Below, piece by piece: positions 4,595 through 52,935 of a stretch of 64,000 nucleotides of DNA. The stretch lies in the sequence record PV946933.1; one strand, given 5' to 3'. The position numbers and the translations under genes were made by a program. The notes below the pieces were generated by a model, which was not told the DNA's origin, searched no databases, and worked only from the letters and a program-made list of their open reading frames with translations. The stretch's first letter is position 1. Every line of letters begins with the position of its first letter. The DNA is from a phage.

Positions 4595-4621
4595 AAGAAA
4601 AAGGGAACCCGAAGGCTCCCT
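4595..4621 (-). terminator. stem-loop plus U-run after gene 35
   Basis: minus strand AGGGAGCC-TTCG-GGTTCCCT (one mismatch) followed by TTTTTCTTT. Confidence 0.55.
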
Positions 4622-4625
4622 CAAT

Positions 4626-19316: not shown

Positions 19317-20495
19317 ATGAGCACAGTTTTTAATACAAATCCAGTTGATGTTTTAAAAGAACCTATGTTCTTTGGTTCAGGTCTTGGTATTGCGCGTTAT
19401 GATATTCAACGCCATAAAGTTTTTGAAGATTTAACCGAAAAGCAGTTGTCATTTTTCTGGCGTCCTGAAGAAGTAAACTTAATGATGGATGCTGCACAAT
19501 TTAACAAGCTTCCTCAATATCAGCAAGATATTTTTACTAATAACCTGAAGTATCAATCACTTCTAGATAGCATTCAGGGTCGTGCACCGTCTGCTGTACT
19601 TATGTCATTAATTTCAGACCCAAGTCTTGATACATGGGTTGCTACATGGACTTTTAGTGAAACTATTCACAGCCGTTCATATACCCATATCATGCGAAAT
19701 CTTTATACTGATCCGTCAAAGGTATTTGATGAGATTGTATTAGATGAAGATATTATGAAACGCGCTGAGTCCATTGGTCGCTATTACGATGATGTTCTTA
19801 AGAAGACCCGTGAATGGGAAAATGCTAAAGAATTTGTAGAACTAGCTAAAGAATCTCCTGATGCTGATTTTCGTTTAAATCGAGCTATTAAACAAGAAGC
19901 CGAAGCCAAACGTGCTTTAATGAAATCTCTTTATCTTTGCCTTCATGTAATCAATGCATTGGAAGCTATTCGTTTTTATGTATCTTTCGCATGTACCTTT
20001 AACTTCCATAAGAACATGGAAATCATGGAAGGTAATGCCAAGATTATGAAGTTCATTGCGCGTGATGAGCAACTTCATCTTAAAGGCACTCAATATATTA
20101 TTCGTCAACTTCAACTTGGCACTGATGGTGATGAATGGGTTAAAATTGCTCAAGAGTGTGAACAAGAAGCAGTTGATATTTTCATGGAAGTTAACCGTCA
20201 AGAAAAAGACTGGGCAGTTCATTTATTTAAAGATGGCGATGTTCCTGGATTAAATACAAATAGCATGTGGAGCTTTATTGATTACTTAACTGTATCTCGT
20301 ATGAAACAGTGCGGTCTTCCATGCCCAATTACCGATGCTCCTGTTAAACACCCGTATCCTTGGATTCGTGAATACCTTAATTCTGATAATGTTCAATCCG
20401 CGCCGCAAGAAGTAGAACTGTCATCTTACCTTGTTGCACAGATTGATAATGATGTTGATGATAAAGTTATGATGAGTTTTAAAAAATATTTTTAA
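19317..20495 (+). CDS. nrdB: aerobic ribonucleotide reductase small subunit, uninterrupted (no intron)
   Basis: 392 aa continuous ORF. Confidence 0.96.
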   Translation: MSTVFNTNPVDVLKEPMFFGSGLGIARYDIQRHKVFEDLTEKQLSFFWRPEEVNLMMDAAQFNKLPQYQQDIFTNNLKYQSLLDSIQGRAPSAVLMSLISDPSLDTWVATWTFSETIHSRSYTHIMRNLYTDPSKVFDEIVLDEDIMKRAESIGRYYDDVLKKTREWENAKEFVELAKESPDADFRLNRAIKQEAEAKRALMKSLYLCLHVINALEAIRFYVSFACTFNFHKNMEIMEGNAKIMKFIARDEQLHLKGTQYIIRQLQLGTDGDEWVKIAQECEQEAVDIFMEVNRQEKDWAVHLFKDGDVPGLNTNSMWSFIDYLTVSRMKQCGLPCPITDAPVKHPYPWIREYLNSDNVQSAPQEVELSSYLVAQIDNDVDDKVMMSFKKYF

Positions 20496-20500
20496 GGAGT

Positions 20501-20514
20501 GGGCCGCAAGGCCC
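20501..20514 (+). promoter_or_regulatory. GNRA-tetraloop hairpin GGGCC-GCAA-GGCCC between nrdB and denA
   Basis: 5-bp GC stem, no strong U-run; likely RNA stability or processing element. Confidence 0.45.
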
Positions 20515-20522
20515 ATTTTATT

Positions 20523-22110
<1,588 letters not shown>

Positions 22111-22113
22111 GCT

Positions 22114-22166
22114 GTTTACAAGTCCCTCATGTTGTGTTATAGTAGACTTACTGACATAACATGAGG
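22114..22166 (+). promoter_or_regulatory. early promoter plus leader hairpin module, copy A (GTTTAC, TATAGT; 15-bp stem pairs spacer with SD)
   Basis: GTTTAC 22114-22119, TATAGT 22138-22143; 22125-22139 pairs with 22152-22166 including GAGG. Confidence 0.55.
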
Positions 22167-22171
22167 ACTTT

Positions 22172-22678
22172 ATGATGGATTTGCAGCTTATTACTACTGA
22201 GATGGTCGTTGAAGCATACGGTGATACTACAGATGGGATTTCTGTATTTAAAGGAAATCGTCGAGTTGGATATATCACCGATCTTAAGAAAGATTTAGCT
22301 AAGCAAGTTAAGCGGAAAACGACCATTAAAGAATATCGAAATCGTCGTCTTGAGCAAGCCCGTGATATGCTTCCTGATGCAGTTGAGGAGATGAAAGTCT
22401 TTTTAGAAAATCAGCTTGCGAAATATGATTGTGATGTGTTCATTAATCAGACTCAACCTAATGTTCATATTAACAACTGTAAATGCTATATCATCGTTAA
22501 TCCTTTGACGGGAAAACATCGTCTTGGAATTAGTAATCCAAATCGTAGCGCATCAGATATGGCAGAAGATGTTGAGGCATGCTTTAAAATTTCTAAATCT
22601 CCGGCTGAACATCATATTTTAATTAACGGTCTTTCTCAAGACGATATTGTAGAGGTTATTAAAACTTTATGCATGTAA
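22172..22678 (+). CDS. alc: Alc-like protein (by position and length; sequence not independently verified)
   Basis: 168 aa ORF between rnlA and pseT.x. Confidence 0.7.
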   Translation: MMDLQLITTEMVVEAYGDTTDGISVFKGNRRVGYITDLKKDLAKQVKRKTTIKEYRNRRLEQARDMLPDAVEEMKVFLENQLAKYDCDVFINQTQPNVHINNCKCYIIVNPLTGKHRLGISNPNRSASDMAEDVEACFKISKSPAEHHILINGLSQDDIVEVIKTLCM

Positions 22679-23022
22679 GTAATTTTACAGCTGGATTGCT
22701 ATTACTTGTAATAGCATTTGGCGGAACTTCTTTAATTTTAAAAAATAAAATTGAAAGATTAGAAACGTCTGTTGTAGAAATTACAAAAACGGCCAATGAA
22801 AACGCTTTAGCATTAGATAATTTGCGAATTCAGTATAATTATATTGATGCGATGAATAATAAAAATCGTGAGGCAATTGCTGCTATTGAGCGTGAAAATG
22901 AAAAACTGCGCAAAGACGCAAAGAAGGCGGATGTGGTGGCTCATAAGCCAGGATTGGTTGAAAAACAAATCAACAACTCCTTCAACAAGTTCGCAGAAGA
23001 CATCCAGGACCTTTCTAAATGA
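22669..23022 (+). CDS. i-spanin (pseT.3-like), N-terminal transmembrane helix
   Basis: 117 aa; hydrophobic N-terminus AGLLLLVIAFGGTSLIL then charged coiled region. Confidence 0.7.
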   Translation: MHVSNFTAGLLLLVIAFGGTSLILKNKIERLETSVVEITKTANENALALDNLRIQYNYIDAMNNKNREAIAAIERENEKLRKDAKKADVVAHKPGLVEKQINNSFNKFAEDIQDLSK

Positions 23023-23318
23023 TTAAACTATCAGCAGTAATATTATCTATTGGTCTTCTAGTTGGTTGTTCGACAAAGCCTCTAGAAGTAAAGAAAGAAA
23101 CAGTTCATCCTAATTGGCCTGTGCAAATAAAGTCATATGACGAAGCTAAACTATCTTGGCAAGTTAAAGTTATTGATGGTAAAGCTTGGGTCGGTATGCC
23201 ATTTGAAGATTCCCAGGAATTTCGTATTTGGCTTAATGATGTAAAACGATATGTGCATGACCAGAAAACTATGATATGTTATTATCGTCAAGAGCTAAAA
23301 GAGGATAAATGTAAATGA
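23019..23318 (+). CDS. o-spanin lipoprotein (pseT.2-like)
   Basis: 99 aa; signal plus lipobox LLVGC; overlaps i-spanin end. Confidence 0.7.
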   Translation: MIKLSAVILSIGLLVGCSTKPLEVKKETVHPNWPVQIKSYDEAKLSWQVKVIDGKAWVGMPFEDSQEFRIWLNDVKRYVHDQKTMICYYRQELKEDKCK

Positions 23319-23541
23319 TTTCATGGCATCAATTTGAACATCTCAAAGGATTGATTTATGAATCCGAGATGGCTGCAATGATTTATGGACGCCAGATTCA
23401 ACGATTAGAATCTTTACCTCCAACTAATGATGTTTTATTAGCTCAATCTCGGGCTAATCTTAAAAATGAATACCAAAATAAGTGGGGTAAAGCATCTAAA
23501 GACCTGCATGATTATATTCAATCATTGGTTGAGAAAAATAA

Positions 23542-23545
<4 letters not shown>
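23315..23545 (+). CDS. hypothetical protein
   Basis: 76 aa, ATGA overlap with upstream gene. Confidence 0.55.
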
Positions 23546-24745
<1,200 letters not shown>

Positions 24746-24746
<1 letters not shown>

Positions 24747-25123
24747 TGGCTTTGCATCATGAAACTTGGGCTATTGTTATTGTAAATAGCGATTTAGTTG
24801 GTACTAGTAATGGGCAATTTTGCGTATTCACTAGTGAAATTAGGGCTTGGGAGGAATGTCTTAAATTAAGAGAAAAGAATCCTGATGTTAAAAAACTAAA
24901 CTGCCTTTACCATGGAAAACTTATGAATAATCTAGAAAAGATTTATCGTCTTTGCGATAAAATCGAAAAAGAAAAGAAATACCTATTTTGTCTATGGCCT
25001 ATTGTTGACGGAAGAGTAGGCTTAGATGTTCTTGATTATGAAACAGAAGACAAAGTAGATGGTTCAATTTTTGATAACGCTTTGGATGTTATTGATTGGC
25101 TTGAAGAAAATTATGTGAGGTAA
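24746..25123 (+). CDS. hypothetical protein (cd.x region)
   Basis: 125 aa ORF. Confidence 0.55.
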
Positions 25124-25125
25124 AT

Positions 25126-25401
25126 ATGTTTCCGACTTACTCTAAAATCGTAGAAGTAGTGTTTAGCCAAATTATCGCTAATAACATGTTTGAAAAGCTT
25201 GATAATGCAGCTGAGCTTCGAATCCACGCTCAAGTGACTCATGTATTGAACGCTTTGCTTCCAGACCAAGTGGATTCTATTGCAATTACGCTATATCCAG
25301 GTTCCGCGCATATCATTGTCGTATTCGGTCTTGATGCTGAGCTAGTCATCAAAGGCGATATTCGTTTTGAATCACAGACATCAGAATTCAAAGCAATTTA
25401 A
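25126..25401 (+). CDS. hypothetical protein (cd.x region)
   Basis: 91 aa, SD GAGG. Confidence 0.55.
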   Translation: MFPTYSKIVEVVFSQIIANNMFEKLDNAAELRIHAQVTHVLNALLPDQVDSIAITLYPGSAHIIVVFGLDAELVIKGDIRFESQTSEFKAI

Positions 25402-25462
25402 TAGTTTACTTTACGGTAGAGTTGTGATATTATAGCTCTACCAAACAAATGAGGAAATTGAA

Positions 25463-25699
25463 ATGCTAAGTGAAAAACCAATTACTGTTAAAGAATTCCA
25501 AGAAAAAGTTAAACTATTTGCTCAGGAATTGGTAAATAAGGTTTCTGAACGATTTCCTGAAACATCGGTTCGTGTTATTACCGAAACTCCTCGTTCAGTA
25601 TTAGTAATTGTGAATCCAGGTGATGGCGATCAAATATCGCATCTTAAATTAGATTTTGATGGATTAGTTGAAGCACAAAGGGTGTATGGCGTACTATGA
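25463..25699 (+). CDS. hypothetical protein (cd.x region)
   Basis: 78 aa, SD GAGGA. Confidence 0.55.
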   Translation: MLSEKPITVKEFQEKVKLFAQELVNKVSERFPETSVRVITETPRSVLVIVNPGDGDQISHLKLDFDGLVEAQRVYGVL

Positions 25700-26034
25700 T
25701 GAATTTAACTGATATAATTGATAATTGTCTTGAAAATGATACTGGCGATCATAGAGCGCTTGATTCTGAAACAGCACAGTTCATTAGAATAACTTTAATG
25801 AACGATACTCTGGTGAACAGTATTCATCCTTCTGTGTATGATGCTATTATTGTGACGAAGTATCCTGTTGAGCTTCACAAAAAGATGGCTGGTGCAATTT
25901 TTATTGATAAGAAAAACCGCTTTAAAGATGGGCAGAATATAATTAGTTCTGTTATTAAAAGTATAACTAAACTTCGTCACGAAATTTATCGTGTTGAAAC
26001 TACTAAATCTGCTTATCTGGTGATTATGAAATGA
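25696..26034 (+). CDS. hypothetical protein (cd.x region)
   Basis: 112 aa, ATGA overlaps. Confidence 0.55.
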   Translation: MMNLTDIIDNCLENDTGDHRALDSETAQFIRITLMNDTLVNSIHPSVYDAIIVTKYPVELHKKMAGAIFIDKKNRFKDGQNIISSVIKSITKLRHEIYRVETTKSAYLVIMK

Positions 26035-26612
26035 AAGCGAGCACAGTACTTCAAATTGCATATTTAGTATCACAAGAATCCAAATGTTGCTCCTGGAAGG
26101 TAGGAGCAGTAATTGAAAAGAATGGACGTATTATTTCTACTGGGTATAATGGTTCCCCCGCAGGGGGTGTGAACTGTTGTGATTATGCTGCTGAACAAGG
26201 TTGGTTGTTGAATAAACCTAAACATACTATCATTCAAGGTCATAAACCCGAATGTGTATCGTTTGGTTCAACTGATCGTTTTGTTTTGGCGAAAGAACAC
26301 CGTAGTGCTCACTCTGAATGGTCGTCTAAAAATGAAATTCATGCTGAACTAAATGCGATTTTGTTTGCTGCACGAAATGGTTCTTCAATTGAAGGTGCTA
26401 CTATGTATGTAACACTTTCTCCTTGCCCAGATTGTGCAAAAGCGATAGCTCAATCTGGAATTAAAAAGTTGGTTTATTGCGAAACATACGATAAAAATAA
26501 ACCTGGCTGGGATGATATTCTGCGAAATGCGGGTATTGAAGTGTTTAATGTTCCTAAGAAAAACTTGAATAAGTTAAACTGGGAAAATATCAACGAATTC
26601 TGTGGTGAATAA
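26031..26612 (+). CDS. cd: dCMP deaminase
   Basis: 193 aa; zinc motifs HAELNA and PCPDCAKAI. Confidence 0.95.
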   Translation: MKASTVLQIAYLVSQESKCCSWKVGAVIEKNGRIISTGYNGSPAGGVNCCDYAAEQGWLLNKPKHTIIQGHKPECVSFGSTDRFVLAKEHRSAHSEWSSKNEIHAELNAILFAARNGSSIEGATMYVTLSPCPDCAKAIAQSGIKKLVYCETYDKNKPGWDDILRNAGIEVFNVPKKNLNKLNWENINEFCGE

Positions 26613-26848
26613 TGAAATTTCGTTTGGTACAACTCACAGCAATTAGTTCTTATTCTAACGAGAACATTTCATTTGCTGTAGAGTATAAGAAATATTTTTT
26701 CTCTAAATGGAAGCAGTATTATAAGTCAGAATGGGTTTGTATTGATAGACCGTATAGTTGGAAATCTGATTTAGAAAAATGCCAAAAATTGCTTTCCACT
26801 CTTAAAGAACGTGGAACAACCCATATTAAAACTGTAATAGGTAAATAA
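26612..26848 (+). CDS. hypothetical protein (31.2-like)
   Basis: 78 aa. Confidence 0.55.
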   Translation: MKFRLVQLTAISSYSNENISFAVEYKKYFFSKWKQYYKSEWVCIDRPYSWKSDLEKCQKLLSTLKERGTTHIKTVIGK

Positions 26849-27157
26849 ATGAAATTGACAACTGAACAGAAAGTAGCAATTCGTGAAATTTTGAAAACTA
26901 AATTGTCCATGGGTATTTCAAACGTGGTTTTTGAAAAGTCTGATGGTACTATTCGTACTATGAAAGGCACTCGTGATGCAGACTTTATGCCAACCATGCA
27001 AACCGGTAAATTGACTGAATCTACTCGGAAAGAATCTACTGATATGATTCCAGTATTTGATGTTGAACTCGGTGCATGGCGAGGTTTTTCTATTGACAAA
27101 TTGATTTCCGTTAATGGTATGAAAGTTGAGCATTTGCTTCAATTTATTGGTAAATAA
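26849..27157 (+). CDS. hypothetical protein (31.1-like)
   Basis: 102 aa. Confidence 0.55.
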   Translation: MKLTTEQKVAIREILKTKLSMGISNVVFEKSDGTIRTMKGTRDADFMPTMQTGKLTESTRKESTDMIPVFDVELGAWRGFSIDKLISVNGMKVEHLLQFIGK

Positions 27158-27183
27158 ATGCTTTAAGAATTATTTGTTATTAT
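27157..27183 (+). promoter_or_regulatory. middle promoter (MotA box AATGCTTTA, -10 TATTAT) for gene 31
   Basis: box 27157-27165, TATTAT 27178-27183. Confidence 0.5.
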
Positions 27184-27213
27184 TAATTCATCTGTTAACA
27201 AAAAGGAAAAACA

Positions 27214-27549
27214 ATGTCTGAAGTACAACAGCTACCAATTCGTGCTGTCGGTGAATATGTTATTTTAGTTTCTGAACCTGCACAAGCCGGTGATGAAGAA
27301 GTCACAGAATCAGGACTCATTATCGGTAAACGTGTTCAAGGTGAAGTTCCTGAACTGTGTGTAATTCACTCTGTTGGTCCTGATGTTCCTGAAGGTTTCT
27401 GTGAAGTTGGTGATTTGACTTCTCTTCCAGTTGGTCAAATTCGAAACGTTCCGCATCCTTTTGTAGCTCTGGGTCTTAAGCAGCCAAAAGAAATTAAACA
27501 AAAATTCGTTACTTGTCACTATAAAGCTATTCCATGTCTTTATAAGTGA
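27214..27549 (+). CDS. 31: gp31 co-chaperonin (GroES analogue)
   Basis: 111 aa [22 protein letters not shown]... Confidence 0.93.
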
Positions 27550-27557
27550 TATAAATA
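27550..27557 (+). promoter_or_regulatory. late promoter TATAAATA upstream of rIII
   Basis: exact TATAAATA directly after gene 31 stop. Confidence 0.55.
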
Positions 27558-27696
27558 ATAATATGAATTGGGTGTCGGAATAATAAGTTAACCGAACAAT
27601 TCTACGTGGTAGTCTACAACTGAGAGATCTGTCGAAAGAAGATGAAATTCAGAAGAACGTGACTACCGAGTTTTAATCTCTAACGAGAATTTTTAA

Positions 27697-27945
27697 ATGA
27701 TTAAACAATTACAACACGCTCTCGAACTGCAACGAAACGCATGGAATAATGGTCACGAAAACTATGGCGCATCTATTGATGTTGAAGCCGAAGCTCTTGA
27801 AATCCTGCGTTATTTCAAACATCTGAATCCTGCTCAAACTGCACTAGCTGCTGAGCTCCAGGAAAAAGATGAACTTAAATATGCTAAGCCTCTGGCTTCT
27901 GCTGCACGAAAAGCAGTTCGTCACTTTGTGGTAACACTGAAGTAA
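27697..27945 (+). CDS. rIII: rIII lysis inhibition accessory protein
   Basis: 82 aa ORF at the T4 rIII position between 31 and 30.9. Confidence 0.8.
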   Translation: MIKQLQHALELQRNAWNNGHENYGASIDVEAEALEILRYFKHLNPAQTALAAELQEKDELKYAKPLASAARKAVRHFVVTLK

Positions 27946-28065
27946 TTATGTTGACGAGGTTTATGGTTATCCTGTCGGTAAATATTCAAAACCTAAGTAC
28001 CCCTTTGAGGGCTTTCGCAGGCAATGCCAATAAGTCCTGCATTTTCATTTAAAAGAGAATTTATA

Positions 28066-28242
28066 ATGGCAAAACAAGCTAAAGCAAAGAAAGCAGTTGA
28101 AAAGAAAGTTGGTGATTCTAAACGCGCTGGTTACAAGCGTGGGTCGAACTCTCGTATCAATCAAACTGTTGAGAAGATCATGCGCCGAGCACGTGCGGTT
28201 CTTCGAGATGATGCTTCTCGTTTTGGTAAGCAGAAAGCATAA
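28066..28242 (+). CDS. small basic protein (30.9-like)
   Basis: 58 aa from ATG 28066 (MAKQAKAKKAVEKKVGDSKRAGYKRG...); track start 28024 is upstream. Confidence 0.55.
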   Translation: MAKQAKAKKAVEKKVGDSKRAGYKRGSNSRINQTVEKIMRRARAVLRDDASRFGKQKA

Positions 28243-28246
28243 GTTG

Positions 28247-28271
28247 AGGACTCCTTCGGGAGTCCTTTTTT
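28247..28271 (+). terminator. rho-independent terminator (UUCG tetraloop)
   Basis: AGGACTCC-TTCG-GGAGTCCT followed by TTTTTT. Confidence 0.8.
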
Positions 28272-28295
28272 ATTTTCCAAAGATTGCACAAAGTT

Positions 28296-28325
28296 GTTTA
28301 CAGTATGGTTCCTTTGTGATAGTAT
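28296..28325 (+). promoter_or_regulatory. early promoter (GTTTAC, 18 bp, TAGTAT) with flanking inverted repeat
   Basis: GTTTAC 28296-28301; CCTTTGT / ACAAAGG arms flank the -10. Confidence 0.5.
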
Positions 28326-28352
28326 TATCTTACACAAACAAAGGAGAATAAA

Positions 28353-28685
28353 ATGAAAACGATTAATCTGAACGCTGCGGTTAAAACTAAATGCTTCAAT
28401 GGTAAATATGATGAAACTATGTGGTTCTTAATGGCAGTTGAAGGTGATATTATTGAAGTAGAAACAACAGAAGGTATGGGAACAGATTTCACCTTTACAA
28501 TTCAAGTTCATAATTTCTTTACTGGTTGGATTTATGAATTGAATACAGTAATCGTTGGAAAAATTGAACAAAATGAATTAGGTGAATGGTATTATGTTAC
28601 AGCTCGCCAACGGGCCGAACGCTTAATTGAGAAGATGAAAAAAGTTGGCAAACTTGACATGCAGCACTGGAAAGTAGTAAAATAA
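28353..28685 (+). CDS. hypothetical protein (30.8-like)
   Basis: 110 aa; RBS AAGGAGAATAAAATG. Confidence 0.6.
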   Translation: MKTINLNAAVKTKCFNGKYDETMWFLMAVEGDIIEVETTEGMGTDFTFTIQVHNFFTGWIYELNTVIVGKIEQNELGEWYYVTARQRAERLIEKMKKVGKLDMQHWKVVK

Positions 28686-28687
28686 TT

Positions 28688-28716
28688 GTTTACTTTGGTA
28701 CAGGATATGATATTAT
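28688..28716 (+). promoter_or_regulatory. early promoter (GTTTAC, 17 bp, TATTAT) bracketed by GGTACAGG / CCTGTACC
   Basis: GTTTAC 28688-28693, TATTAT 28711-28716, 8-bp inverted repeat 28697-28704 / 28719-28726. Confidence 0.5.
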
Positions 28717-28752
28717 ATACCTGTACCGCAATTAAACATCTTGGAGAATAAA

Positions 28753-29118
28753 ATGAACTACATCAACTTTGAACGTAAATATGTTTCTAACGGTATTGCA
28801 GGTTCTATTGATACTATCTGCCTTTGGAAACATCAAAATGGATCAGTATGCGAAATTGAACAGTATATGACTCCTAACTACGTTTATATGCGATTTGAAA
28901 ATGGCATCACGGTTTCAATCACGAAAGAAGGTTCTTCTTTTAAAATCGCATTAGATGATGATTTCCGTCAACGCGATTTAGGTACTCATCCTTGCTGGAA
29001 TGGCGTCAATCGTAAGCTTCTGGTTAAAACTTGGATTCGTCATATTCTGAGTAACAGAGCTAAACCTGAGCATCTTGAAGCGATCTTTGATGTAGTTCTT
29101 AATGAATTTGATATTTAA
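28753..29118 (+). CDS. hypothetical protein (30.7-like)
   Basis: 121 aa from ATG 28753 (track start 28741 is TTG). Confidence 0.6.
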   Translation: MNYINFERKYVSNGIAGSIDTICLWKHQNGSVCEIEQYMTPNYVYMRFENGITVSITKEGSSFKIALDDDFRQRDLGTHPCWNGVNRKLLVKTWIRHILSNRAKPEHLEAIFDVVLNEFDI

Positions 29119-29158
29119 AATAAAATAGGGGCTTCGGCCCCTTACTGAGGAAAATACT

Positions 29159-29446
29159 ATGTTTATGACTACTTATTTTGATACCCGTAAAAATTTCTGT
29201 GAAGTGGTTTTCTCTAAGGCACCTAAAGGCCTTCCTGCTCATTTGCAACCTACCAGTGAATCGATTAAAAACTACGTTAATGCAGTATGTCCTTTAAAGT
29301 TCCGTACTGTAAATGGACGTGATACTCTAGCAATCATTAAACTCAATCGTGAAATTGACATTGACCCTTCAATTGCGCGTGAAATTAATATTTCTGACAT
29401 TGGTGGTGGTAATGTTAAATCGCACGGATTTCAGATGAGGTTCTAA
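29159..29446 (+). CDS. hypothetical protein (30.6-like)
   Basis: 95 aa. Confidence 0.55.
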   Translation: MFMTTYFDTRKNFCEVVFSKAPKGLPAHLQPTSESIKNYVNAVCPLKFRTVNGRDTLAIIKLNREIDIDPSIAREINISDIGGGNVKSHGFQMRF

Positions 29447-29643
29447 TGAAATTCTTTTTGGGTCAAACTGTTGAATTAAAGGGAGTCGGTATACCTGGAT
29501 TAATTTCTAAGGTTTTGCCTGCATTTAAATGGAGAGACGTTCAAATAAAAGAGGCTTATATTGTTTCCTGGGTAGATGGAAATGAAGACCTTCGTATGGG
29601 TGATGAATTATCTCCTATCTATGGATTAAAGGAATTAGTATGA
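29446..29643 (+). CDS. hypothetical protein (30.5-like)
   Basis: 65 aa. Confidence 0.5.
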   Translation: MKFFLGQTVELKGVGIPGLISKVLPAFKWRDVQIKEAYIVSWVDGNEDLRMGDELSPIYGLKELV

Positions 29644-29846
29644 ATATAATTAATAAGATTTTTGGAATTCAGTACATTAAGGTCACATATAAAGTAACGT
29701 ATAAAGGTCCGTATACCGATGAACATGAAGAACCACAAGTTAAGTCTATTATATTAGAAAAGGACCCTAACTGGCCAGTTGAATTTCGTCTTCCTTGCTA
29801 TGGTCATTGGGCTGATGTTGAAATTATAAGTATTGAAAATGTCTGA
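29640..29846 (+). CDS. hypothetical protein (30.4-like)
   Basis: 68 aa. Confidence 0.5.
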   Translation: MNIINKIFGIQYIKVTYKVTYKGPYTDEHEEPQVKSIILEKDPNWPVEFRLPCYGHWADVEIISIENV

Positions 29847-30297
29847 GCTAGAGATAAGAAGCAATTTTAGATGGCCATCATGTGCATTAAGCAATTTCGC
29901 CCAATGGCCTTTCGTTATGGATGGTATCCAATTTGGAGGTCTCGAAGGATTCCTCCAAGGATGTAAGGTGAAAAATGTTGAACAGCAAAGACGTATATTT
30001 GGGATGTCCGGATTGGATGCACAAAAAGCTGGACGAGCTTATGCTAGAGCTCAGGACCGCGGTACGTTGTTCTGGCTTGGAGTTCCATTTTCAAGATACT
30101 CCCCGGCGTGGAAAGAATTATACACAAATGCATATTTTGAAGCAGCGATCCAAAACAGGGGCTTTCGTGATGCATTACAAGCCTCGAAAGGAAAAGTTTT
30201 GAAGCACAGCATGGCTAGTGGTCTAACAAAAGATGATACAATACTAACTGAAGCTGAATTTATTGATGTGTTAAACCTATTAAGAGACTCTCTATGA
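29839..30297 (+). CDS. NADAR/YbiA-like (DUF1768) protein, 30.3-like
   Basis: 152 aa from ATG 29839; signature ALSNFAQWPF...GGLEGFLQGCK. Confidence 0.65.
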   Translation: MSELEIRSNFRWPSCALSNFAQWPFVMDGIQFGGLEGFLQGCKVKNVEQQRRIFGMSGLDAQKAGRAYARAQDRGTLFWLGVPFSRYSPAWKELYTNAYFEAAIQNRGFRDALQASKGKVLKHSMASGLTKDDTILTEAEFIDVLNLLRDSL

Positions 30298-31139
30298 AGC
30301 CAACTATTTTGACTGATATTGATGGAGTATGTTTAAGCTGGCAATCAGGCCTTCCTTATTTTGCTCAGAAATATAATCTTCCATTAGAACATATTTTAAA
30401 AATGATCCAAGATGAGAAATTTATTTCTCCAGGTAAACTCTTTAATTGTGACGAAGAACTTGGCGTCAAGTTAATTGAAAAATACAATCGTTCAGATTTT
30501 ATTCGTTACTTGTCTCCGTATAAAGATGCCCTGTGTGTAATTAACAAATTAAAAGAAGATTATAATTTTGTAGCTGTTACAGCATTGGGTGATTCTATTG
30601 ATGCTCTATTAAATCGTCAATTTAATTTGAATGCTCTTTTTCCTGGTGCCTTTTCAGAAGTAATGATGTGCGGTCATGATTCTTCAAAAGAAGAGTTGTT
30701 CAAAAAGGCAAAAGAGAAATATAACGTAATTTGTTATATTGACGATCTCGCTCATCACTGCGATCATGCGAGTGAAATATTAAATGTTCCTGTTTATTGG
30801 ATGGCTCGAGGAGAACGTGACAATATTCCAAAAACTGCTCAGCGAGTTTATACATGGAATGATGTAGAAAATAAGCTTTTTTCGCCGAAGGAAAATAAAG
30901 AAAGTTTTGATAGTGAAAAAGCTATAAAAGATTTAATTGAGAAGATGGTTAAAAACGATTCTTTTCCTTGGAACACTACCTGGAGAACGCCTGGATTAAA
31001 TCCTTATAATCCATATTATCTATATCATCCATATCAGACACATCCGTTTCAGACATGGAACTATATTAAACCTGGTGGCATAGAGTATTTGTATAATAGA
31101 CCTACTAGTGGTGATAATATTTTTCAAGGAGCATTCTAA
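30294..31139 (+). CDS. HAD-superfamily hydrolase-like protein (30.2-like)
   Basis: 281 aa; N-terminal ILTDIDGV motif; aromatic/Pro-rich C-terminus. Confidence 0.6.
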   Translation: MKPTILTDIDGVCLSWQSGLPYFAQKYNLPLEHILKMIQDEKFISPGKLFNCDEELGVKLIEKYNRSDFIRYLSPYKDALCVINKLKEDYNFVAVTALGDSIDALLNRQFNLNALFPGAFSEVMMCGHDSSKEELFKKAKEKYNVICYIDDLAHHCDHASEILNVPVYWMARGERDNIPKTAQRVYTWNDVENKLFSPKENKESFDSEKAIKDLIEKMVKNDSFPWNTTWRTPGLNPYNPYYLYHPYQTHPFQTWNYIKPGGIEYLYNRPTSGDNIFQGAF

Positions 31140-31408
31140 TGTTTGTTGTTCATACTATTTATGAAAATGAAGGTAATACTACACGTGATTACGGTCACGT
31201 AAATCAATTTTTTAGATGCAATCCAGAATTCCGTGCTCAAAAAGACGAACGAATTTTTAAAAAATGTGTAGAACAAGGTTTCATTTACGTCAAGCACTGG
31301 ATGCAAGGAAATAAAGTTAGAACTACATATCATAAGTCTTTGCCTGAGCTTAATGATGAATTGATTTATAATAGAAATGTAAATCAAACTCTGAAGGATG
31401 AACAATGA
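31139..31408 (+). CDS. hypothetical protein (30.1-like)
   Basis: 89 aa. Confidence 0.55.
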   Translation: MFVVHTIYENEGNTTRDYGHVNQFFRCNPEFRAQKDERIFKKCVEQGFIYVKHWMQGNKVRTTYHKSLPELNDELIYNRNVNQTLKDEQ

Positions 31409-32865
31409 TTCTTAAAATTCTGAATGAAATAGCATCTATTGGATCAACTAAGCAGAAGCAAGCAATTCTTGAAAAGAATAAAGATAATGAATTGCTTAAA
31501 CGAGTATATCGTCTGACTTATTCTCGTGGGTTGCAGTATTATATCAAGAAATGGCCTAAACCTGGTATTGCTACCCAGAGTTTTGGAATGCTGACTATTA
31601 CCGATATGCTTGACTTCATTGAATTCACGTTAGCTACTCGGAAATTAACTGGCAATGCAGCAATTGAGGAATTAACTGGATATATCACCGATGGTAAAAA
31701 GGATGATGTTGAAGTTTTGCGTCGAGTTATGATGCGAGACCTTGAATGCGGTGCTTCAGTATCTATTGCAAACAAAGTTTGGCCAGGTTTAATTCCTGAA
31801 CAGCCTCAAATGCTCGCAAGTTCTTATGATGAAAAAGGCATTAGTAAGAATATCAAATTTCCAGCTTTTGCGCAGTTAAAAGCAGATGGAGCTCGGTGTT
31901 TTGCTGAAGTCCGAGGTGATGAATTAGATGATGTTCGTCTTTTATCGCGAGCTGGCAATGAATACCTAGGATTAGATCTTCTTAAGGAAGAGTTAATCAA
32001 AATGACTGCTGAAGCCCGCCAGATTCATCCAGAAGGCGTGTTAATCGATGGCGAATTGGTATACCATGAGCAAGTTGAAAAGGAGCCAGAAGGCCTAGAT
32101 TTTCTTTTTGACTCTCCTGAAAATAGTAAAGTTAAAGAGTTTGCCGAAGTAGCTGAATCTCGTACTGCTTCTAATGGAATCGCTAATAAATCTTTAAAGG
32201 GAACTATTTCAGAAAAAGAAGCCAAATGTATGAAGTTTCAGGTCTGGGATTATGTCCCGTTGGTAGAAATATACGGTCTTCCGGCGTTTCGTTTAAAATA
32301 TGATGTACGTTTTTCTAAACTAGAACAAATGACATCAGGATATGATAAAGTAATTTTAATTGAAAACCAAGTAGTAAATAACCTAGATGAAGCTAAGGTA
32401 ATTTATAAAAAGTATATTGACCAAGGTCTTGAAGGTATTATTCTCAAAAATACCGATGGATTGTGGGAAAATGCTCGTTCAAAAAATCTCTATAAATTTA
32501 AAGAAGTAATTGATGTTGATTTAAAAATTGTAGGAATTTATCCTCACCGTAAAGACCCTACTAAAGCGGGTGGATTTATTCTTGAATCAGAGTGTGGAAA
32601 AATTAAAGTAAATGCAGGTTCAGGCTTAAAAGATAAAGCTGGCGTAAAATCACATGAACTTGACCGTACTCGCATTATGGAAAACCAAAATTATTATATT
32701 GGAAAAATTCTAGAGTGCGAATGCAATGGTTGGTTAAAATCTGATGGCCGCACTGATTACGTTAAATTATTTCTTCCGATTGCGATTCGTTTACGTGAAG
32801 ATAAAACTAAAGCTAATACATTTGAGGATGTATTTGGTGATTTTCATGAGGTAACTGGTTTATGA
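31405..32865 (+). CDS. 30: ATP-dependent DNA ligase
   Basis: 486 aa; adenylation motif KADGAR; T4 ligase sequence. Confidence 0.96.
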   Translation: MILKILNEIASIGSTKQKQAILEKNKDNELLKRVYRLTYSRGLQYYIKKWPKPGIATQSFGMLTITDMLDFIEFTLATRKLTGNAAIEELTGYITDGKKDDVEVLRRVMMRDLECGASVSIANKVWPGLIPEQPQMLASSYDEKGISKNIKFPAFAQLKADGARCFAEVRGDELDDVRLLSRAGNEYLGLDLLKEELIKMTAEARQIHPEGVLIDGELVYHEQVEKEPEGLDFLFDSPENSKVKEFAEVAESRTASNGIANKSLKGTISEKEAKCMKFQVWDYVPLVEIYGLPAFRLKYDVRFSKLEQMTSGYDKVILIENQVVNNLDEAKVIYKKYIDQGLEGIILKNTDGLWENARSKNLYKFKEVIDVDLKIVGIYPHRKDPTKAGGFILESECGKIKVNAGSGLKDKAGVKSHELDRTRIMENQNYYIGKILECECNGWLKSDGRTDYVKLFLPIAIRLREDKTKANTFEDVFGDFHEVTGL

Positions 32866-33050
32866 AAGCTTACTTAGAAACAATTGTCATTGCTCAAAAA
32901 GAAGGTGGAGATGTTTCTACTTCGGTATCACAAGTCATTCTCGAATTTGTAGATGCATATGCTTATAATAAATTTACAGAAACATTTGATGCCTACGAAA
33001 AAGGTCCAAAGTTTGAAATATATCGTACTCTCTTACCACTAGATTATTAA
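32862..33050 (+). CDS. hypothetical protein (alt.1-like)
   Basis: 62 aa. Confidence 0.5.
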   Translation: MKAYLETIVIAQKEGGDVSTSVSQVILEFVDAYAYNKFTETFDAYEKGPKFEIYRTLLPLDY

Positions 33051-33071
33051 AGGCCTTCGGGCCTTTAATTT

Positions 33072-33079
33072 TATAAATA
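33072..33079 (+). promoter_or_regulatory. late promoter TATAAATA for alt (preceded by hairpin AGGCC-TTCG-GGCCT 33051-33064)
   Basis: exact TATAAATA 24 bp upstream of Alt ATG. Confidence 0.6.
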
Positions 33080-33102
33080 GAATAAACACTAGAGAGGATA
33101 TG

Positions 33103-35157: not shown

Positions 35158-35160
35158 ATC

Positions 35161-37218
35161 ATGGAACTTATTACAGAATTATTTGACGGCGCTTCGGCGC
35201 CGGTTGTTAACTTAAATCCTAAGCATAAAATACCTCAAATTTTTGCTATTCAAGCCGGTGAAGAAAGCGTGCTTCCTGGATTTAGATTTTGTACATACAC
35301 CTCTGGTGGTGATACAAATAAAAACGTTAAGCCAGGCGATAAAATGATGCATATCGTAATGATAGGTGTTAATGAGAAACTATCATTAGTTAAACTTAAA
35401 AACTTGGGTGGAAATCCAATTGGTGTCATTAATGCGGTTTTTGATACTGCTCTTCAGACAATGAAACAATACAAAATTGACGCATGCTTATTCCGCGTAC
35501 TAAAGAGTAAAACAAATGGTGCAGCTCGTCAAATGCAAGTTATTGCCGACCGTTTAGTACGTACTAAAGGAGCAGGTCGATATGTTCTTTTAAAGGAAAT
35601 CTGGGATTACGATAAAAAGTACGCATATATTATGGTTTACCGTAAAAATGCTAATTTAGAAGACATTCCAGGTGTACCTCCTATTTCAACTGAGTTATTC
35701 ACAAAAGTTGAATCAAAGGTTGGTGATGTTTATGTAGATGTTAAAACAGGTAATGCTGTTCCTAAAGCTGTTGCTGTTGCTGCTTCTATTGCTTTAGAAA
35801 ACGATAAGCGCACGGATCAAGCTGTTATTCAGAAAACTAAAATTAGTCGTCGGTTAGCAGCACAAGCTCAATATTCTACTGTCGATGCTTCACTTCAGGG
35901 TGATAGCTTCGCTGCTAAGAAATATCAAGAGTTTGAATCTAAAGTTCCGGTATATAAAGCAGAAGGACCAATGAACTCTGGCGTTATTCAGGTTGGTTCA
36001 AACTTCAGCAAAGGAGCTATCGGTGGTATGAGAAGTGCTTCCCGTTTTAAATCTAGTGATTATGAATTAGAAAGCTTCCGAAATCATATTGCATTGGCTC
36101 ATGCGCGTTTACGTGATCCATCTATCAAGTTACAGAGCGATATATCATATCAAGGTTCTCAAGAATATTTAAAGAATAAAGAATTTTTTGATTATAAAAC
36201 TGATAAAATTTTAAGTGATCTTGCTGACATTAATATTTCTAATAGCTTTGATGTTATTAAGAAAATTGTCAATGATTTAGTTAAAGGTTCTAAAGCCACA
36301 CCAGATGAAAAGGTAGCTATTGTTCAATTTGTCATGAATGGCATTTATAAATTGATTAATGAGTCTGCTTCTCAAGCGTATGAATATGCAAGTACTGAAG
36401 TAACCCCAAAAGGATTAACTCGGGCTGAGTCTGATGTAATTGAAGATTATTGTGCAGATTCATATGTTGAAATGAACTCGTTCCTTTTAGGTAAACCGGA
36501 TTCTACCCGTGAAGAATATATGGAACGAGCTATTAAACACATCGAGACAATGGATTCTGCCTTTGCCAAAGGATCAGTTCTTCCTCCAGGAACTACACTT
36601 TACCGTGGGCAAGAAGTTACCTTTAAAACTTTACGTCATAATATTGAAAATAAAATGTTCTACTTCAAGAACTTCGTATCCACATCGCTTAAACCAAATA
36701 TCTTCGGTGAGTATGGTAAAAACTATATGGCTCTAGATGATTCCAGTACAGTATTTTCTGGTGAAGGAGAAGGTTCAGTTGATGCTGAAGATTTAATGCA
36801 TATGGGTAGTCACTCTGCTTATGCGAATGAAGATGCTGAAACTAGCGTAGGTATGGTAATTAAAGGGGCTGAGCGAATTAAAGTTATCGTTCCAGGTCAT
36901 TTATCAGGATTTCCATCAGAAGCTGAAGTTATTTTACCACGTGGAATTTTGCTGAAGATTAATAAAGTGAGTACGTACATGATGAAAGAAACTGCTTATA
37001 ATAAGTATCTAATCGAAGGCACAATCGTTCCTCCTTCTGAACAATTAGAAGAATCGGTATATGATGGCGACCATCTAATGGAAACTGGTGAAGTTCGTCC
37101 AATGGCTGGATTTAATCAATTCCTTGTAGAAGAATCAAAAGAAGAGGAAAACGAAGTTTCTCAAATCTTGGCTTCTTTGGTTAACATCAACGGAATGTCT
37201 AAAAAGTTCAAGATGTAG
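35161..37218 (+). CDS. second Alt-like ADP-ribosyltransferase paralogue
   Basis: 685 aa; shares MELITELFD N-terminus, YKIDAC, GRYVLLKE.WDYDKKYAYI, LYRGQ, FVSTSL, EVILPRG with adjacent Alt; divergent middle. Confidence 0.85.
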   Translation: MELITELFDGASAPVVNLNPKHKIPQIFAIQAGEESVLPGFRFCTYTSGGDTNKNVKPGDKMMHIVMIGVNEKLSLVKLKNLGGNPIGVINAVFDTALQTMKQYKIDACLFRVLKSKTNGAARQMQVIADRLVRTKGAGRYVLLKEIWDYDKKYAYIMVYRKNANLEDIPGVPPISTELFTKVESKVGDVYVDVKTGNAVPKAVAVAASIALENDKRTDQAVIQKTKISRRLAAQAQYSTVDASLQGDSFAAKKYQEFESKVPVYKAEGPMNSGVIQVGSNFSKGAIGGMRSASRFKSSDYELESFRNHIALAHARLRDPSIKLQSDISYQGSQEYLKNKEFFDYKTDKILSDLADINISNSFDVIKKIVNDLVKGSKATPDEKVAIVQFVMNGIYKLINESASQAYEYASTEVTPKGLTRAESDVIEDYCADSYVEMNSFLLGKPDSTREEYMERAIKHIETMDSAFAKGSVLPPGTTLYRGQEVTFKTLRHNIENKMFYFKNFVSTSLKPNIFGEYGKNYMALDDSSTVFSGEGEGSVDAEDLMHMGSHSAYANEDAETSVGMVIKGAERIKVIVPGHLSGFPSEAEVILPRGILLKINKVSTYMMKETAYNKYLIEGTIVPPSEQLEESVYDGDHLMETGEVRPMAGFNQFLVEESKEEENEVSQILASLVNINGMSKKFKM

Positions 37219-37270
37219 TTTACAAGTCACTCGTGTTGTGTTATAATAATCTTACTGACATAACATGAGG
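37218..37270 (+). promoter_or_regulatory. early promoter plus leader hairpin module, copy B (GTTTAC, TATAAT)
   Basis: 48/53 identical to copy A at 22114-22166; GTTTAC overlaps stop of upstream gene. Confidence 0.55.
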
Positions 37271-37278
37271 AACACAAA

Positions 37279-37569
37279 ATGAAATCTTCTTTGCGCTTTT
37301 TAGGTCAAGAACTCGTAGTTGAAGGCGTTATTCCTGCTGATAACGCTTTTAATGAAGCGGTTTACGACGAATTTATCAAAATTTTTGGAACAGATAAAAA
37401 GTTCGGAATTTTTCCTTCTGAAAATTTTTCAAAGCCAGAGCAGACTGAAAGTATTTTCCAAGGTGTAGTAACAGGTAAATTTGAGTCAGAAGCTCCGGTA
37501 AAAATTGAAGTTTATATTGAAGACAGTTTAGTTGCTTCAGTTGCTGCTTTTATTTCATTCCGTAAATAA
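37279..37569 (+). CDS. hypothetical protein
   Basis: 96 aa, SD GAGGA; convergent with gene 54. Confidence 0.55.
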   Translation: MKSSLRFLGQELVVEGVIPADNAFNEAVYDEFIKIFGTDKKFGIFPSENFSKPEQTESIFQGVVTGKFESEAPVKIEVYIEDSLVASVAAFISFRK

Positions 37570-37575
37570 AAATAT

Positions 37576-37593
37576 GGGGACCGAAAGGTCCCC
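37576..37593. terminator. bidirectional terminator hairpin GGGGACC-GAAA-GGTCCCC between convergent genes
   Basis: 7-bp GC stem, GNRA loop, A/T-rich runs on both sides. Confidence 0.7.
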
Positions 37594-37597
37594 ATTG

Positions 37598-38563
37598 TTA
37601 TATTGCTCCTAATATTTTACTTTGCGAGTTGACAATTCCTGTCATAGTATTAATGTTTGAAATGCTTCCTGCAGTTCCTCCTAATCTACTAAGTCGTGAA
37701 AGCGAATTAGATAGTCCAGTAACACCTCCACTATTTCCGAGAACGCTTTGAATGCCATTTATAGCAGCAGATTCAAGCCATTCAAGCGCAGCTTGTCTAT
37801 CAACTGCTCCAGCCTGCATGACTCTATACGCAAAAGTAACATCAAATGTAGTTATTTGATTATCTCCATCATATGATAACTCAGGAGCGCTCACTGACAC
37901 TGGAATGCATCCGGTGAACATCACAGCAGTATGAGGTAATCCATTACGAGCATGAAGATTAACCTGAATGTCTGCCTCGACATCTTGCGGTAAAGCACGC
38001 AATCCAGTTACTGGGTCTTGAACAGCGTTAACCCAGTCTTGCATCGCACGATAATTACATGCTTCTGAATCCATCCTAAATGAAATAACCAAAGGGTCTA
38101 ATTCTCTCCCAGTTATACGAATATTAGGAGAATTATAGTTCCAGTCAGTTTCATAGGATAATCTATTCTCTGGCATTTTTACGGAGTATATCATCAATCC
38201 AGATGAGTTATATGCCATGTTAAAGAAGTCAATTAAATATGTACCAACTGTAAATGAGCCTAATAAACTTTGAACTGTACGTTGACTCATGGCACCAATA
38301 AGATATTTACTAACTCCTGATTTTCTTATCAGTTTTTGTGTGCCAGCAGTAATTAGCGTGGTAATTCCCTGATTAATATCGCCTTGAGTTAATCCTAACC
38401 AATCTGAATTTAGGCCCAAGTTATTATAAGAAAAGTTGCTAATTGAACTTATCAACGAAGAGCTTTTAGTTGATGGAGTTGTCGCAAAAACGCAGCTAAA
38501 CATATTATTACGTTGGAAATCTGCGTTTATTGCTTGATTATTAAATTCCTCTAAAGAATACAT
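37598..38563 (-). CDS. 54: gp54 baseplate tail tube initiator
   Basis: 321 aa; T4 gp54 sequence and synteny. Confidence 0.93.
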   Translation of the reverse strand: MYSLEEFNNQAINADFQRNNMFSCVFATTPSTKSSSLISSISNFSYNNLGLNSDWLGLTQGDINQGITTLITAGTQKLIRKSGVSKYLIGAMSQRTVQSLLGSFTVGTYLIDFFNMAYNSSGLMIYSVKMPENRLSYETDWNYNSPNIRITGRELDPLVISFRMDSEACNYRAMQDWVNAVQDPVTGLRALPQDVEADIQVNLHARNGLPHTAVMFTGCIPVSVSAPELSYDGDNQITTFDVTFAYRVMQAGAVDRQAALEWLESAAINGIQSVLGNSGGVTGLSNSLSRLSRLGGTAGSISNINTMTGIVNSQSKILGAI

Positions 38564-52886: not shown

Positions 52887-52910
52887 AAAAAGGGAACCCG
52901 AAGGTTCCCT
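52881..52910. terminator. bidirectional terminator between segD and gene 23
   Basis: AGGGAACC-CGAA-GGTTCCCT; minus strand followed by TTTTTCTATTT. Confidence 0.75.
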
Positions 52911-52935
52911 AAAATTGTGCTTCTATCGTTAGAGA

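Follow-up and report, generated by a model that had tools for sequence, protein, structure and literature searches.

Two kinds of element described in T4-type phages, both combining a promoter with a hairpin, are close to the one considered here. The first is found in the T4 genes e, soc, 49 and I-TevI, where an internal promoter lies between the two arms of a hairpin and where the Shine-Dalgarno (SD) sequence and/or the AUG are paired in long transcripts (PMC3014915, section 29). The second consists of the early-promoter and stem-loop cassettes known as PeSLs, in which G-T pairs have been noted and whose repeated copies have been proposed as recombination substrates for shuffling (Arbiol 2010, PMC2839356; Comeau 2014, PMC4122927). 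In addition, T4 early promoters themselves have further consensus regions, as noted by Hinton 2010 (PMC2988021). The present analysis concerns a stretch of phage DNA of 64,000 nucleotides (nt; sequence record PV946933.1), the whole of which is referred to as the window, and in particular a module of early promoter and hairpin that occurs in it twice, at 22114-22166 upstream of alc and at 37218-37270 upstream of alt.-3. With a probability of roughly 0.6, each copy is a σ70 early promoter fused to a translational insulator, the alt.-3 copy having been derived from alc by cassette transfer. A literature search, outside which the older subscription literature lay, returned no paper that describes masking of the SD at alc or at the early promoters of T4, and no experiment on alc or alt.-3.

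The genus of the window is Tequatrovirus, the surroundings of both copies being 97-98% identical to many phages of this T4-like group, and the early-gene strand is its + strand, on which all module features lie. As an earlier account based on the letters alone (the sequence-only reading) had claimed, the two copies agree at 48 of 53 positions. With one more base included in the direct comparison, they agree at 49 of 54; they are 15,104 bp apart, their flanks are unrelated on either side, and a repeat search of the window found no third copy. Copy 1 is located between the stop codon of rnlA (gene 63; 20986..22110, stop TAA at 22108-22110) and the start of alc, which encodes an inhibitor of host transcription (22175..22678, alternative ATG at 22172; open reading frame (ORF) list, Pfam PF17527 with E 4.5e-92, T4 annotation). 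Copy 2 is located between the stop of a full-length alt-like gene and the ATG of alt.-3 at 37279 (37279..37569; 96 amino acids (aa), DUF5498; ORF list, Pfam PF17602 with E 1.4e-64, T4 annotation). As a small correction to the earlier account, the TAG of the alt-like ORF occupies 37216-37218 and shares its G with the GTTTAC of the promoter. T4 has both sites too, at alc and at alt.-3.

Both copies are T4-type early promoters, as had been proposed. The promoter of copy 1 (22114..22143) comprises a -35 GTTTAC with TTTACA at 22115-22120, a 17-bp spacer, TGn at 22135-22137 and a -10 TATAGT at 22138-22143, and that of copy 2 (37218..37247) comprises GTTTAC at 37218-37223, a 17-bp spacer with TGn and a -10 TATAAT at 37242-37247. 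Each is preceded by an A/T-rich region, and their σ70 scores, 10/12 plus TG for copy 1 and 11/12 plus TG for copy 2, are among the best between 19 and 38 kb. The RefSeq record of a related phage, Lutter, has a 30-nt promoter annotated at exactly both orthologous sites; the GenBank and RefSeq records of T4 hold no promoter feature at the module site.

In both copies, the spacer pairs with the SD region, in agreement with the sequence-only reading, and copy 1 has a core stem of 14 bp, copy 2 one of 13 bp (module positions 12 or 13 to 25 with 40 to 52 or 53). According to the fold and its pair list, the 5' arm of copy 1 (22120..22138) bears the anti-SD CCCTC within the -35/-10 spacer and the 3' arm (22153..22170) holds the SD GAGG at 22163-22166; in copy 2, the 5' arm (37230..37242, likewise within the promoter spacer) bears an anti-SD beginning CTC and the 3' arm (37257..37270) holds GAGG at 37267-37270. 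An extension of 4-5 bp lengthens the helix of copy 1 to about 19-20 bp, the helix of copy 2 being 13 bp plus 2, and both stems begin 10-12 nt past the stop codon of the upstream gene. The five substitutions between the copies fall where they had been placed: position 16 exchanges A-U for G-U, position 12 is at the stem end, and positions 29, 32 and 33 are in the loop. In copy 2, the substitution of A for C at position 12 leaves the last G of the SD without a partner. When the RNA folding that had been recommended was run, it gave -24.8 kcal/mol (z -4.8) for copy 1 and -19.6 kcal/mol (z -4.5) for copy 2, and none of 200 dinucleotide shuffles of either copy folded as well as the native sequence. 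RNA folded from the predicted +1 onwards proved unstructured (z -0.9 and +0.5).

Judged from promoter geometry, transcripts would start inside the hairpin, as the earlier account had it. The predicted starts, A 22150 in copy 1 (7 nt past the -10; about T4 136300, minus strand, NC_000866.4) and A 37254 in copy 2 (about T4 123057, minus strand, same record), lie in the loop, 3 nt before the 3' arm, and RNA initiated at the module's own promoter would lack the 5' arm because the predicted start is in the loop. The further proposal, that the SD is sequestered in read-through RNA and free in RNA from its own promoter, was addressed with the opening energy, i.e. the computed cost of opening the segment from the SD to AUG+2. 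It amounts to 10.5 and 11.5 kcal/mol (alc and alt.-3) in read-through RNA against 2.1 and 2.5 kcal/mol in promoter-initiated RNA. Opening energies were used in place of the mean unpaired probability of the SD, which is misleading for alt.-3 on account of a weak alternative pairing in the short RNA. The same contrast, 9-18 kcal/mol for read-through against 1-3 kcal/mol for promoter-initiated RNA, was obtained for alc in 11 of 15 leaders outside the window, T4 included; it is absent at the early promoters at 25405 and 28689 of the window and from the alt.-3 leaders of other genera. De Smit and van Duin are said to have found that opening energies as far apart as these change initiation by orders of magnitude.

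The alc leader provides the comparative part of the evidence. Alc homologues are found in 1,137 phage records, and rnlA-alc spacers were taken from eight genera in GenBank and from 37 IMG/VR loci, giving a set of 33 distinct leaders (32 rnlA-alc leaders plus the alt.-3 leader of the window). The same layout occurs in Gelderland-, Karam-, Kagamiyama-, Jiaoda-, Braga- and Dhakavirus and in several other lineages: GTTTACA, a 5' arm directly after it, the -10 in a loop of 12-21 nt, and a 3' arm ending in the SD (GGAGA or GAGGA). The sequences of the arms vary by genus, for instance ATCTCCGTTTAGTT/AACTAAACGGAGAT, ATCCTCATTTTGTTG/CAACAAAATGAGGAT, ATCCTCATCAG/CTGATGAGGAT and AACCTCTCATTTTT/AAAAATGAGAGGTT, and a stem that contains the SD is present in 9 of 13 lineage variants, with z from -3.8 to -7.1. 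Co-variation was scored on 19 alc leaders of other genera, aligned with GTTTAC and the end of the SD purine run as the sole anchors and not fitted to the structure; this alignment replaced MAFFT and RNAalifold on whole leaders, which left the 3' arms out of register and gave a weak consensus. A gapless comparison of two leaders (L014 and L051) gave false breaks through a loop indel and was not used. In the anchored alignment, 86% of the cells are paired, against 65.6 +/- 1.8 in shuffles (reached by 0 of 500) and 34-50% with a slid partner; double changes occur in 11 of 15 pairs, and the covariation score is 0.569 against 0.196. When spacers and 5' untranslated regions (UTRs) of alc leaders were exchanged, the duplex had a mean of -21.0 kcal/mol in cognate combinations and -11.0 +/- 3.7 in non-cognate ones, no permutation in 20,000 reaching the cognate mean. 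Arms that co-vary across genera are the strongest non-experimental support for SD masking at alc, and they suggest that the pairing itself has been maintained there. Taken together, the SD-masking reading of the first account is supported both computationally and comparatively.

Among the same leaders, three Gaprivervirus-like ones (L030, L031 and L054) have a classical terminator, AAAGGGGTGTACAAGCCCCTTCTTTCT, before alc and another promoter without GTTTAC; the tblastn match to Alc in these is about 740 nt long and not about 500, which suggests an insertion in or beside alc.

Within Tequatrovirus, the module is essentially present as two copies per genome: blastn with the 54-mer returned 999 places in 500 phage records, and pattern scans added a few copies in IMG/VR (9 loci) and in metagenome contigs (7 loci). 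The copies of T4 differ at 1 of 54 positions, and those of phage Lutter and of one IMG/VR genome are identical. Some polymorphisms are common to both loci: positions 16 and 32 each vary between G and A. The sampled core-stem substitutions C15U, G16A and G40A all retain pairing (U-G, A-U or U-A), C13U pairs only in the alternative register C13-G52, position 13 being a bulge in the reference fold, and the only sampled substitution that breaks pairing is C12A at the stem end. The Tequatrovirus stem contains 2-3 G-U pairs, and the fold of its sense strand is more stable than that of the antisense strand by 5-10 kcal/mol.

For the masking to have an effect, RNA must enter the module from upstream. 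Before the first of two tandem alt genes (alt, 33100-35157, followed by alt-like, 35161-37218), a late-promoter motif TATAAATA is located at 33072..33079, + strand, 21 nt before the alt ATG at 33100 and just past a terminator hairpin; transcripts from it would pass through both alt genes and enter copy 2. In phage Lutter, the record shows a late promoter at the orthologous position. Before rnlA, a candidate middle promoter of the MotA type is found at 20930-20960, + strand (TGCTT 20934-20938, TACTAT 20954-20959), as a motif match only. No terminator-like site was found before copy 1 or, on the + strand, anywhere from the alt promoter down to copy 2, and the late-promoter motif TATAAATA does not occur in or near either module. 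With candidate middle and late promoters upstream and a module that no terminator precedes, both copies should receive read-through RNA; its existence and amount are what we infer from this arrangement. In published omics data of T4, alc and alt.-3 are assigned to early RNA and early protein, rnlA to early RNA and late protein, and alt to the late class (PMC9697503), which is consistent with insulation without proving it. Differential RNA sequencing data exist for T4 (GSE255091; bioRxiv 10.1101/2024.04.04.588121). The spacer of the candidate rnlA middle promoter also holds a mini-hairpin, CCACA-TGGAG-TGTGG, that resembles the spacer mini-hairpins of early promoters in other genera.

The history of the second copy can be approached through the alt.-3 leader, homologues of alt.-3 being found in 837 records. 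In Dhaka-, Karam-, Kagamiyama-, Mosig-, Gapriver- and Marfavirus, GTTTACA at alt.-3 is accompanied by a short hairpin wholly within the promoter spacer (for instance ACACCAC-AAGGA-TGTGGT), and the SD CATGAGGA is unmasked. Because these six genera have this other arrangement, the SD-masking module looks ancestral at alc, with a copy placed at alt.-3 only in the Tequatrovirus lineage. GTTTACA and ACATGAGGA mark the ends of the transferred patch, and both flank the alt.-3 promoter in other genera, so that the short homologies needed for a short gene-conversion tract would already have been in place at alt.-3. The gene orders rnlA-alc and alt-alt.-3-gene 54 are conserved in every sampled genus.

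Comparison of the alc and alt.-3 leaders shows that the two loci share cassettes in three genera. In a Dhaka-like IMG/VR genome (2706795356), the alc leader shares its last 30 nt (ACCTTACACAAACATGAGGAGAACATTATG) with the alt.-3 leader of the same genome; the 5' halves differ, and the alc stem still forms (leaders L043 and L082). To judge by these leaders, this is a second, independent and partial exchange of alc and alt.-3 cassettes. In Mosigvirus, the alc leader of RB69 (L016) and the alt.-3 leader of LF82-4 (L060) are identical at 49 of 62-63 positions, and the alc promoter bears a short hairpin in its spacer, of the kind found at alt.-3 elsewhere.

The mechanism proposed here would operate as follows. 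The 17-bp spacer separating the -35 from the -10 carries an anti-SD arm rich in pyrimidines, the loop contains the -10 and the predicted start site, and the 3' arm would correspond to the first ~20 nt of the 5' UTR, SD included. A polymerase starting at the module's own promoter would then produce an mRNA without the 5' arm and with an open ribosome-binding site, and RNA arriving from upstream would have both arms, fold, and hide the SD of alc or alt.-3. The sources of such read-through would be rnlA and the candidate middle promoter in the case of alc and the late-transcribed alt genes in the case of alt.-3. Alc and Alt.-3 would thus be made only while early promoters fire, despite the later transcription of their genes as tails of upstream messages. 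Finally, the alc cassette would have moved to the alt.-3 promoter in a Tequatrovirus ancestor, as a patch bounded by GTTTACA and ACATGAGGA.

If this were true, it would provide a simple cis-acting explanation of why, as has long been observed, some T4 early proteins stop being made at early-promoter shut-off although longer middle and late messages still contain their coding sequence, and it would mean that the -35/-10 spacer of a strong promoter is able to carry a second code, at the level of RNA. For annotation and engineering, moving or replacing such a promoter would alter translation as well as transcription, and near-identical promoter cassettes would be expected places of ectopic recombination.

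The generality of the design was assessed by a scan of the T4 early strand (1-80 kb and 140-169 kb) together with the window, in which 36 candidate early promoters were considered. The read-through penalty is at least 7.7 kcal/mol in 9 of these 36, the two window copies among them; the other penalised promoters are that at window 28297 and those at T4 53942 (nrdC.8), 166806 (ndd.4), 13185 (modB), 62796 (regB), 65412 (denV) and 70695 (e.8). In all, the design recurs at some ten T4 early promoters besides those of alc and alt.-3. When the halves of 24 well-defined early modules were swapped, the opening energy of the translation initiation region rose by a mean of 5.6 kcal/mol with the cognate upstream half and of 2.9 with a non-cognate one, and at least 6 kcal/mol was reached in 11 of the 24 cognate modules against 17.6% of the non-cognate combinations; 0 of 20,000 permutations matched this. 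That SD masking by the spacer applies throughout the genome to a large part of the T4 early genes, so that each of these is translated only from its own early promoter and all read-through is translationally silent, is a tentative proposal that is somewhat more doubtful than not; its candidates in T4 are 53942, 166806, 13185, 62796, 65412, 70695, 8217 and 15287, in addition to alc and alt.-3. Were it to hold, read-through RNA would perhaps be open to Rho, early-promoter shut-off would end the synthesis of these proteins at once, and the regulation would travel with the promoter cassette on gene conversion, as it appears to have done repeatedly between alc and alt.-3.

Several individual early promoters deserve mention. 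At 28296-28356 of the window, just past a terminator at 28246-28267, a further early promoter, GTTTACA-GTATGGTTCCTTTG-TGATAGTAT, shares the design: its spacer pairs with CAAAGGAG, the SD region of the ORF that starts at 28354, with a read-through penalty of about 10 kcal/mol. The T4 modules at ~53942 (nrdC.8) and ~166806 (ndd.4), loci L075 and L076, are identical at 45 of 53 positions and mask the SD by 12-13 kcal/mol, and the stretch from SD to ATG in the nrdC.8 leader, GGAGGAACACAAAATG, is that of alt.-3. At 25404-25466 and 28688-28757 of the window, the -10 lies in the loop of a stem (GGTAGAG...CTCTACC and GGTACAGGATAT...ATATACCTGTACC, respectively) whose 3' arm ends before the SD.

Some observations weigh against the insulator reading. 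The stems at 25405 and 28689, which enclose the -10 without the SD, imply that early-promoter hairpins may have another, more general role, and the unmasked SD of six other genera implies that masking is dispensable for alt.-3. At alc itself, the leaders of Mosigvirus (RB69) and L053 have no SD-masking stem, and in Tegunavirus TG1 and in L045 the stem encloses the -10 and ends before the SD. In the promoter-initiated alt.-3 RNA, a weak pairing of the SD with a downstream UCUUC remains. Shuffling of 14 nt within the spacer is only weakly discriminating for alc, where 28 of 300 shuffles reached the observed opening energy (1 of 300 for alt.-3), so that the complementarity stems in part from a C/U-rich spacer facing a purine-rich SD. 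Finally, outside Tequatrovirus the arms are perfect Watson-Crick repeats whose antisense strand folds as well as the sense strand; strand asymmetry is therefore no proof of a role at the RNA level, and the argument from G-U pairs, which holds only in Tequatrovirus, was dropped as general evidence.

The alternative that survives best, although it is unlikely, regards the module as a PeSL-type cassette in which the stem-loop mainly attenuates or terminates transcription from upstream, the SD pairing being a by-product of an intergenic space of ~60 nt. Cassettes of early promoter, stem-loop and SD, with stems between the -35 and -10 or overlapping the -10, were described by Arbiol et al. 2010, one such stem reducing downstream lacZ about as much as the rrnB T1 terminator (PMC2839356), and Comeau et al. 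2014 extended PeSLs to the T4/PST pair (PMC4122927). The stems that enclose the -10 without the SD at 25405, at 28689, in TG1 and in L045 also suit such a role. However, the alc stems are followed by A-rich translation initiation regions instead of a U-run, their loops, 12-21 nt long, greatly exceed those of intrinsic terminators (3-8 nt), and neither copy is called as terminator-like, although real terminators in the same region are called. Moreover, the extension of the alc 3' arm over the SD comes at the cost of a large loop, whereas stems that ignore the SD have a small one. A variant of somewhat lower probability involves Rho, which acts on untranslated RNA: a masked SD would leave the read-through RNA untranslated and open to Rho, transcription would stop inside the gene, and the module would insulate both translation and transcription. 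This variant fits all the evidence for SD masking and reconciles it with the attenuator effect of PeSLs, but pseT.3, pseT.2 and pseT, downstream of alc, would lose their read-through transcription. Both the attenuator and the Rho variant could operate side by side with SD masking.

That the module serves RNA processing or stability, either as an RNase III site or as a 3'-end barrier protecting the rnlA and alt messages, is improbable. The stems do begin shortly after the upstream stop codon, and the helix of copy 1 is long when its extension is included. RNase III, however, needs about two helical turns, and cleavage by it is unlikely because most genera have stems of 11-17 bp, which are short for this enzyme, as is the helix of copy 2. 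A 3' barrier, for its part, has no need of the SD as its 3' arm, yet this is what is found in 9 of 13 lineage variants.

A very small probability remains for an element acting at the level of DNA, in which the inverted repeat around the -10 would be the operator of a dimeric protein or a cruciform that modulates the promoter, for example during early shut-off. The mechanism of early-promoter shut-off in T4 has been described as not completely understood (PMC3014915), and outside Tequatrovirus the arms are perfect inverted repeats without strand asymmetry. Nevertheless, arm sequences that vary freely between genera with their complementarity kept are the signature of a structure, and a sequence-specific operator is unlikely because the arms co-vary instead of staying constant; the G-U pairs of the Tequatrovirus stem and its better folding as sense strand point the same way. 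A distance of 12-21 nt between the arms disfavours cruciform extrusion. It is just as hard to credit that the module has no selected function, its likeness being due to recent duplication or gene conversion and to an extended early-promoter consensus, with an accidental stem. Over 53 nt, the mean gapless identity among 26 T4-type early promoter/leader modules is 26 +/- 5.9; the alc/alt.-3 pair stands above this background, but it is tied for first place with the 70695/27079 pair (48 of 53), the 53942/166806 pair following with 45 of 53, so that other early-promoter pairs are as alike. The alc spacer shuffles and the -11 kcal/mol still reached by non-cognate duplexes speak for an accidental stem as well. 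The co-variation of the 19 alc leaders of other genera, the two swap tests and the presence of both copies throughout the 500 Tequatrovirus records (999 places) speak against it. An intrinsic terminator was rejected, as in no lineage does a U-run follow the stem, the loops are of large size and neither site was called; the readings as an RNase III site or as an Rfam family were likewise rejected, an Rfam scan by E-value of 20000-39000 having matched no family at either copy. Translational coupling was judged unlikely in view of the position of the ribosomal helicase, about +11 from the P site.

Some further features of the window adjoin or resemble those discussed above. The two tandem alt paralogues (33100-37218) are full-length, with 685 aa each, and an ADP-ribosyltransferase domain was found in the second; of this second paralogue, T4 retains only decayed fragments (alt.-1, alt.-2), and full copies exist in T2, phiD1 and CrRp10. 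A bidirectional intrinsic terminator at 37574..37595 (both strands), with the perfect hairpin ATGGGGACC-GAAA-GGTCCCCAT, separates the alt.-3 unit from the converging late gene 54. A 40-nt repeat at 4596-4635 and 52885-52924, 85% identical and with a G+C-rich hairpin GGGAACCCGAAGGCTCCC, probably represents two related terminators.

Compared with described systems, the modules at alc and alt.-3 share with T4 early promoters the GTTTAC, the 17-bp spacer, the TGn, a TATAGT or TATAAT and an A/T-rich upstream region. In contrast to the described early-promoter consensus, the extra conservation consists in the complementarity of spacer and 5' UTR, the sequence itself differing by promoter and by genus. 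They also differ from the hairpins at the ribosome-binding sites of Aeromonas phage Aeh1 mobE and of homing endonucleases, which nearly silence a selfish gene and are not built around an early promoter. With PeSLs they have in common a cassette of upstream stop, early promoter, overlapping stem-loop, SD and ATG that is repeated in the genome, and a transfer from alc to alt.-3, as suggested by the leaders, would fit the PeSL model of cassette shuffling. PeSL stems, however, are read as terminators or attenuators and, in the PST/T4 set, lie just upstream of the promoter (PMC4122927), whereas at alc and alt.-3 the SD itself forms the 3' arm, the -10 and the predicted start site are in the loop, and no U-run follows. 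Furthermore, PeSLs are found preferentially in hyperplastic regions beside variable ORFs, and both sites considered here are within a conserved gene order. The module is therefore also PeSL-like and meets most of the PeSL definition, without the terminator signature and the hyperplastic location. The closest likeness is to T4 e, soc, 49 and I-TevI, in which the SD and/or AUG is likewise paired in long RNA, the promoter start lies between the arms and the choice of promoter decides translatability. In that class, the internal promoter is a late gp55 promoter (TATAAATA) and the silent RNA is early; at alc and alt.-3, it is a σ70 early promoter with the 5' arm in its -35/-10 spacer, and silence is predicted for RNA that reads through in the middle or late period. 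Because the internal promoter is of the early type, the timing is inverted relative to the e class. The alc and alt.-3 modules are, with an effect on translation that we infer, the early-promoter, inverted-timing version of a mechanism known for T4 late genes.

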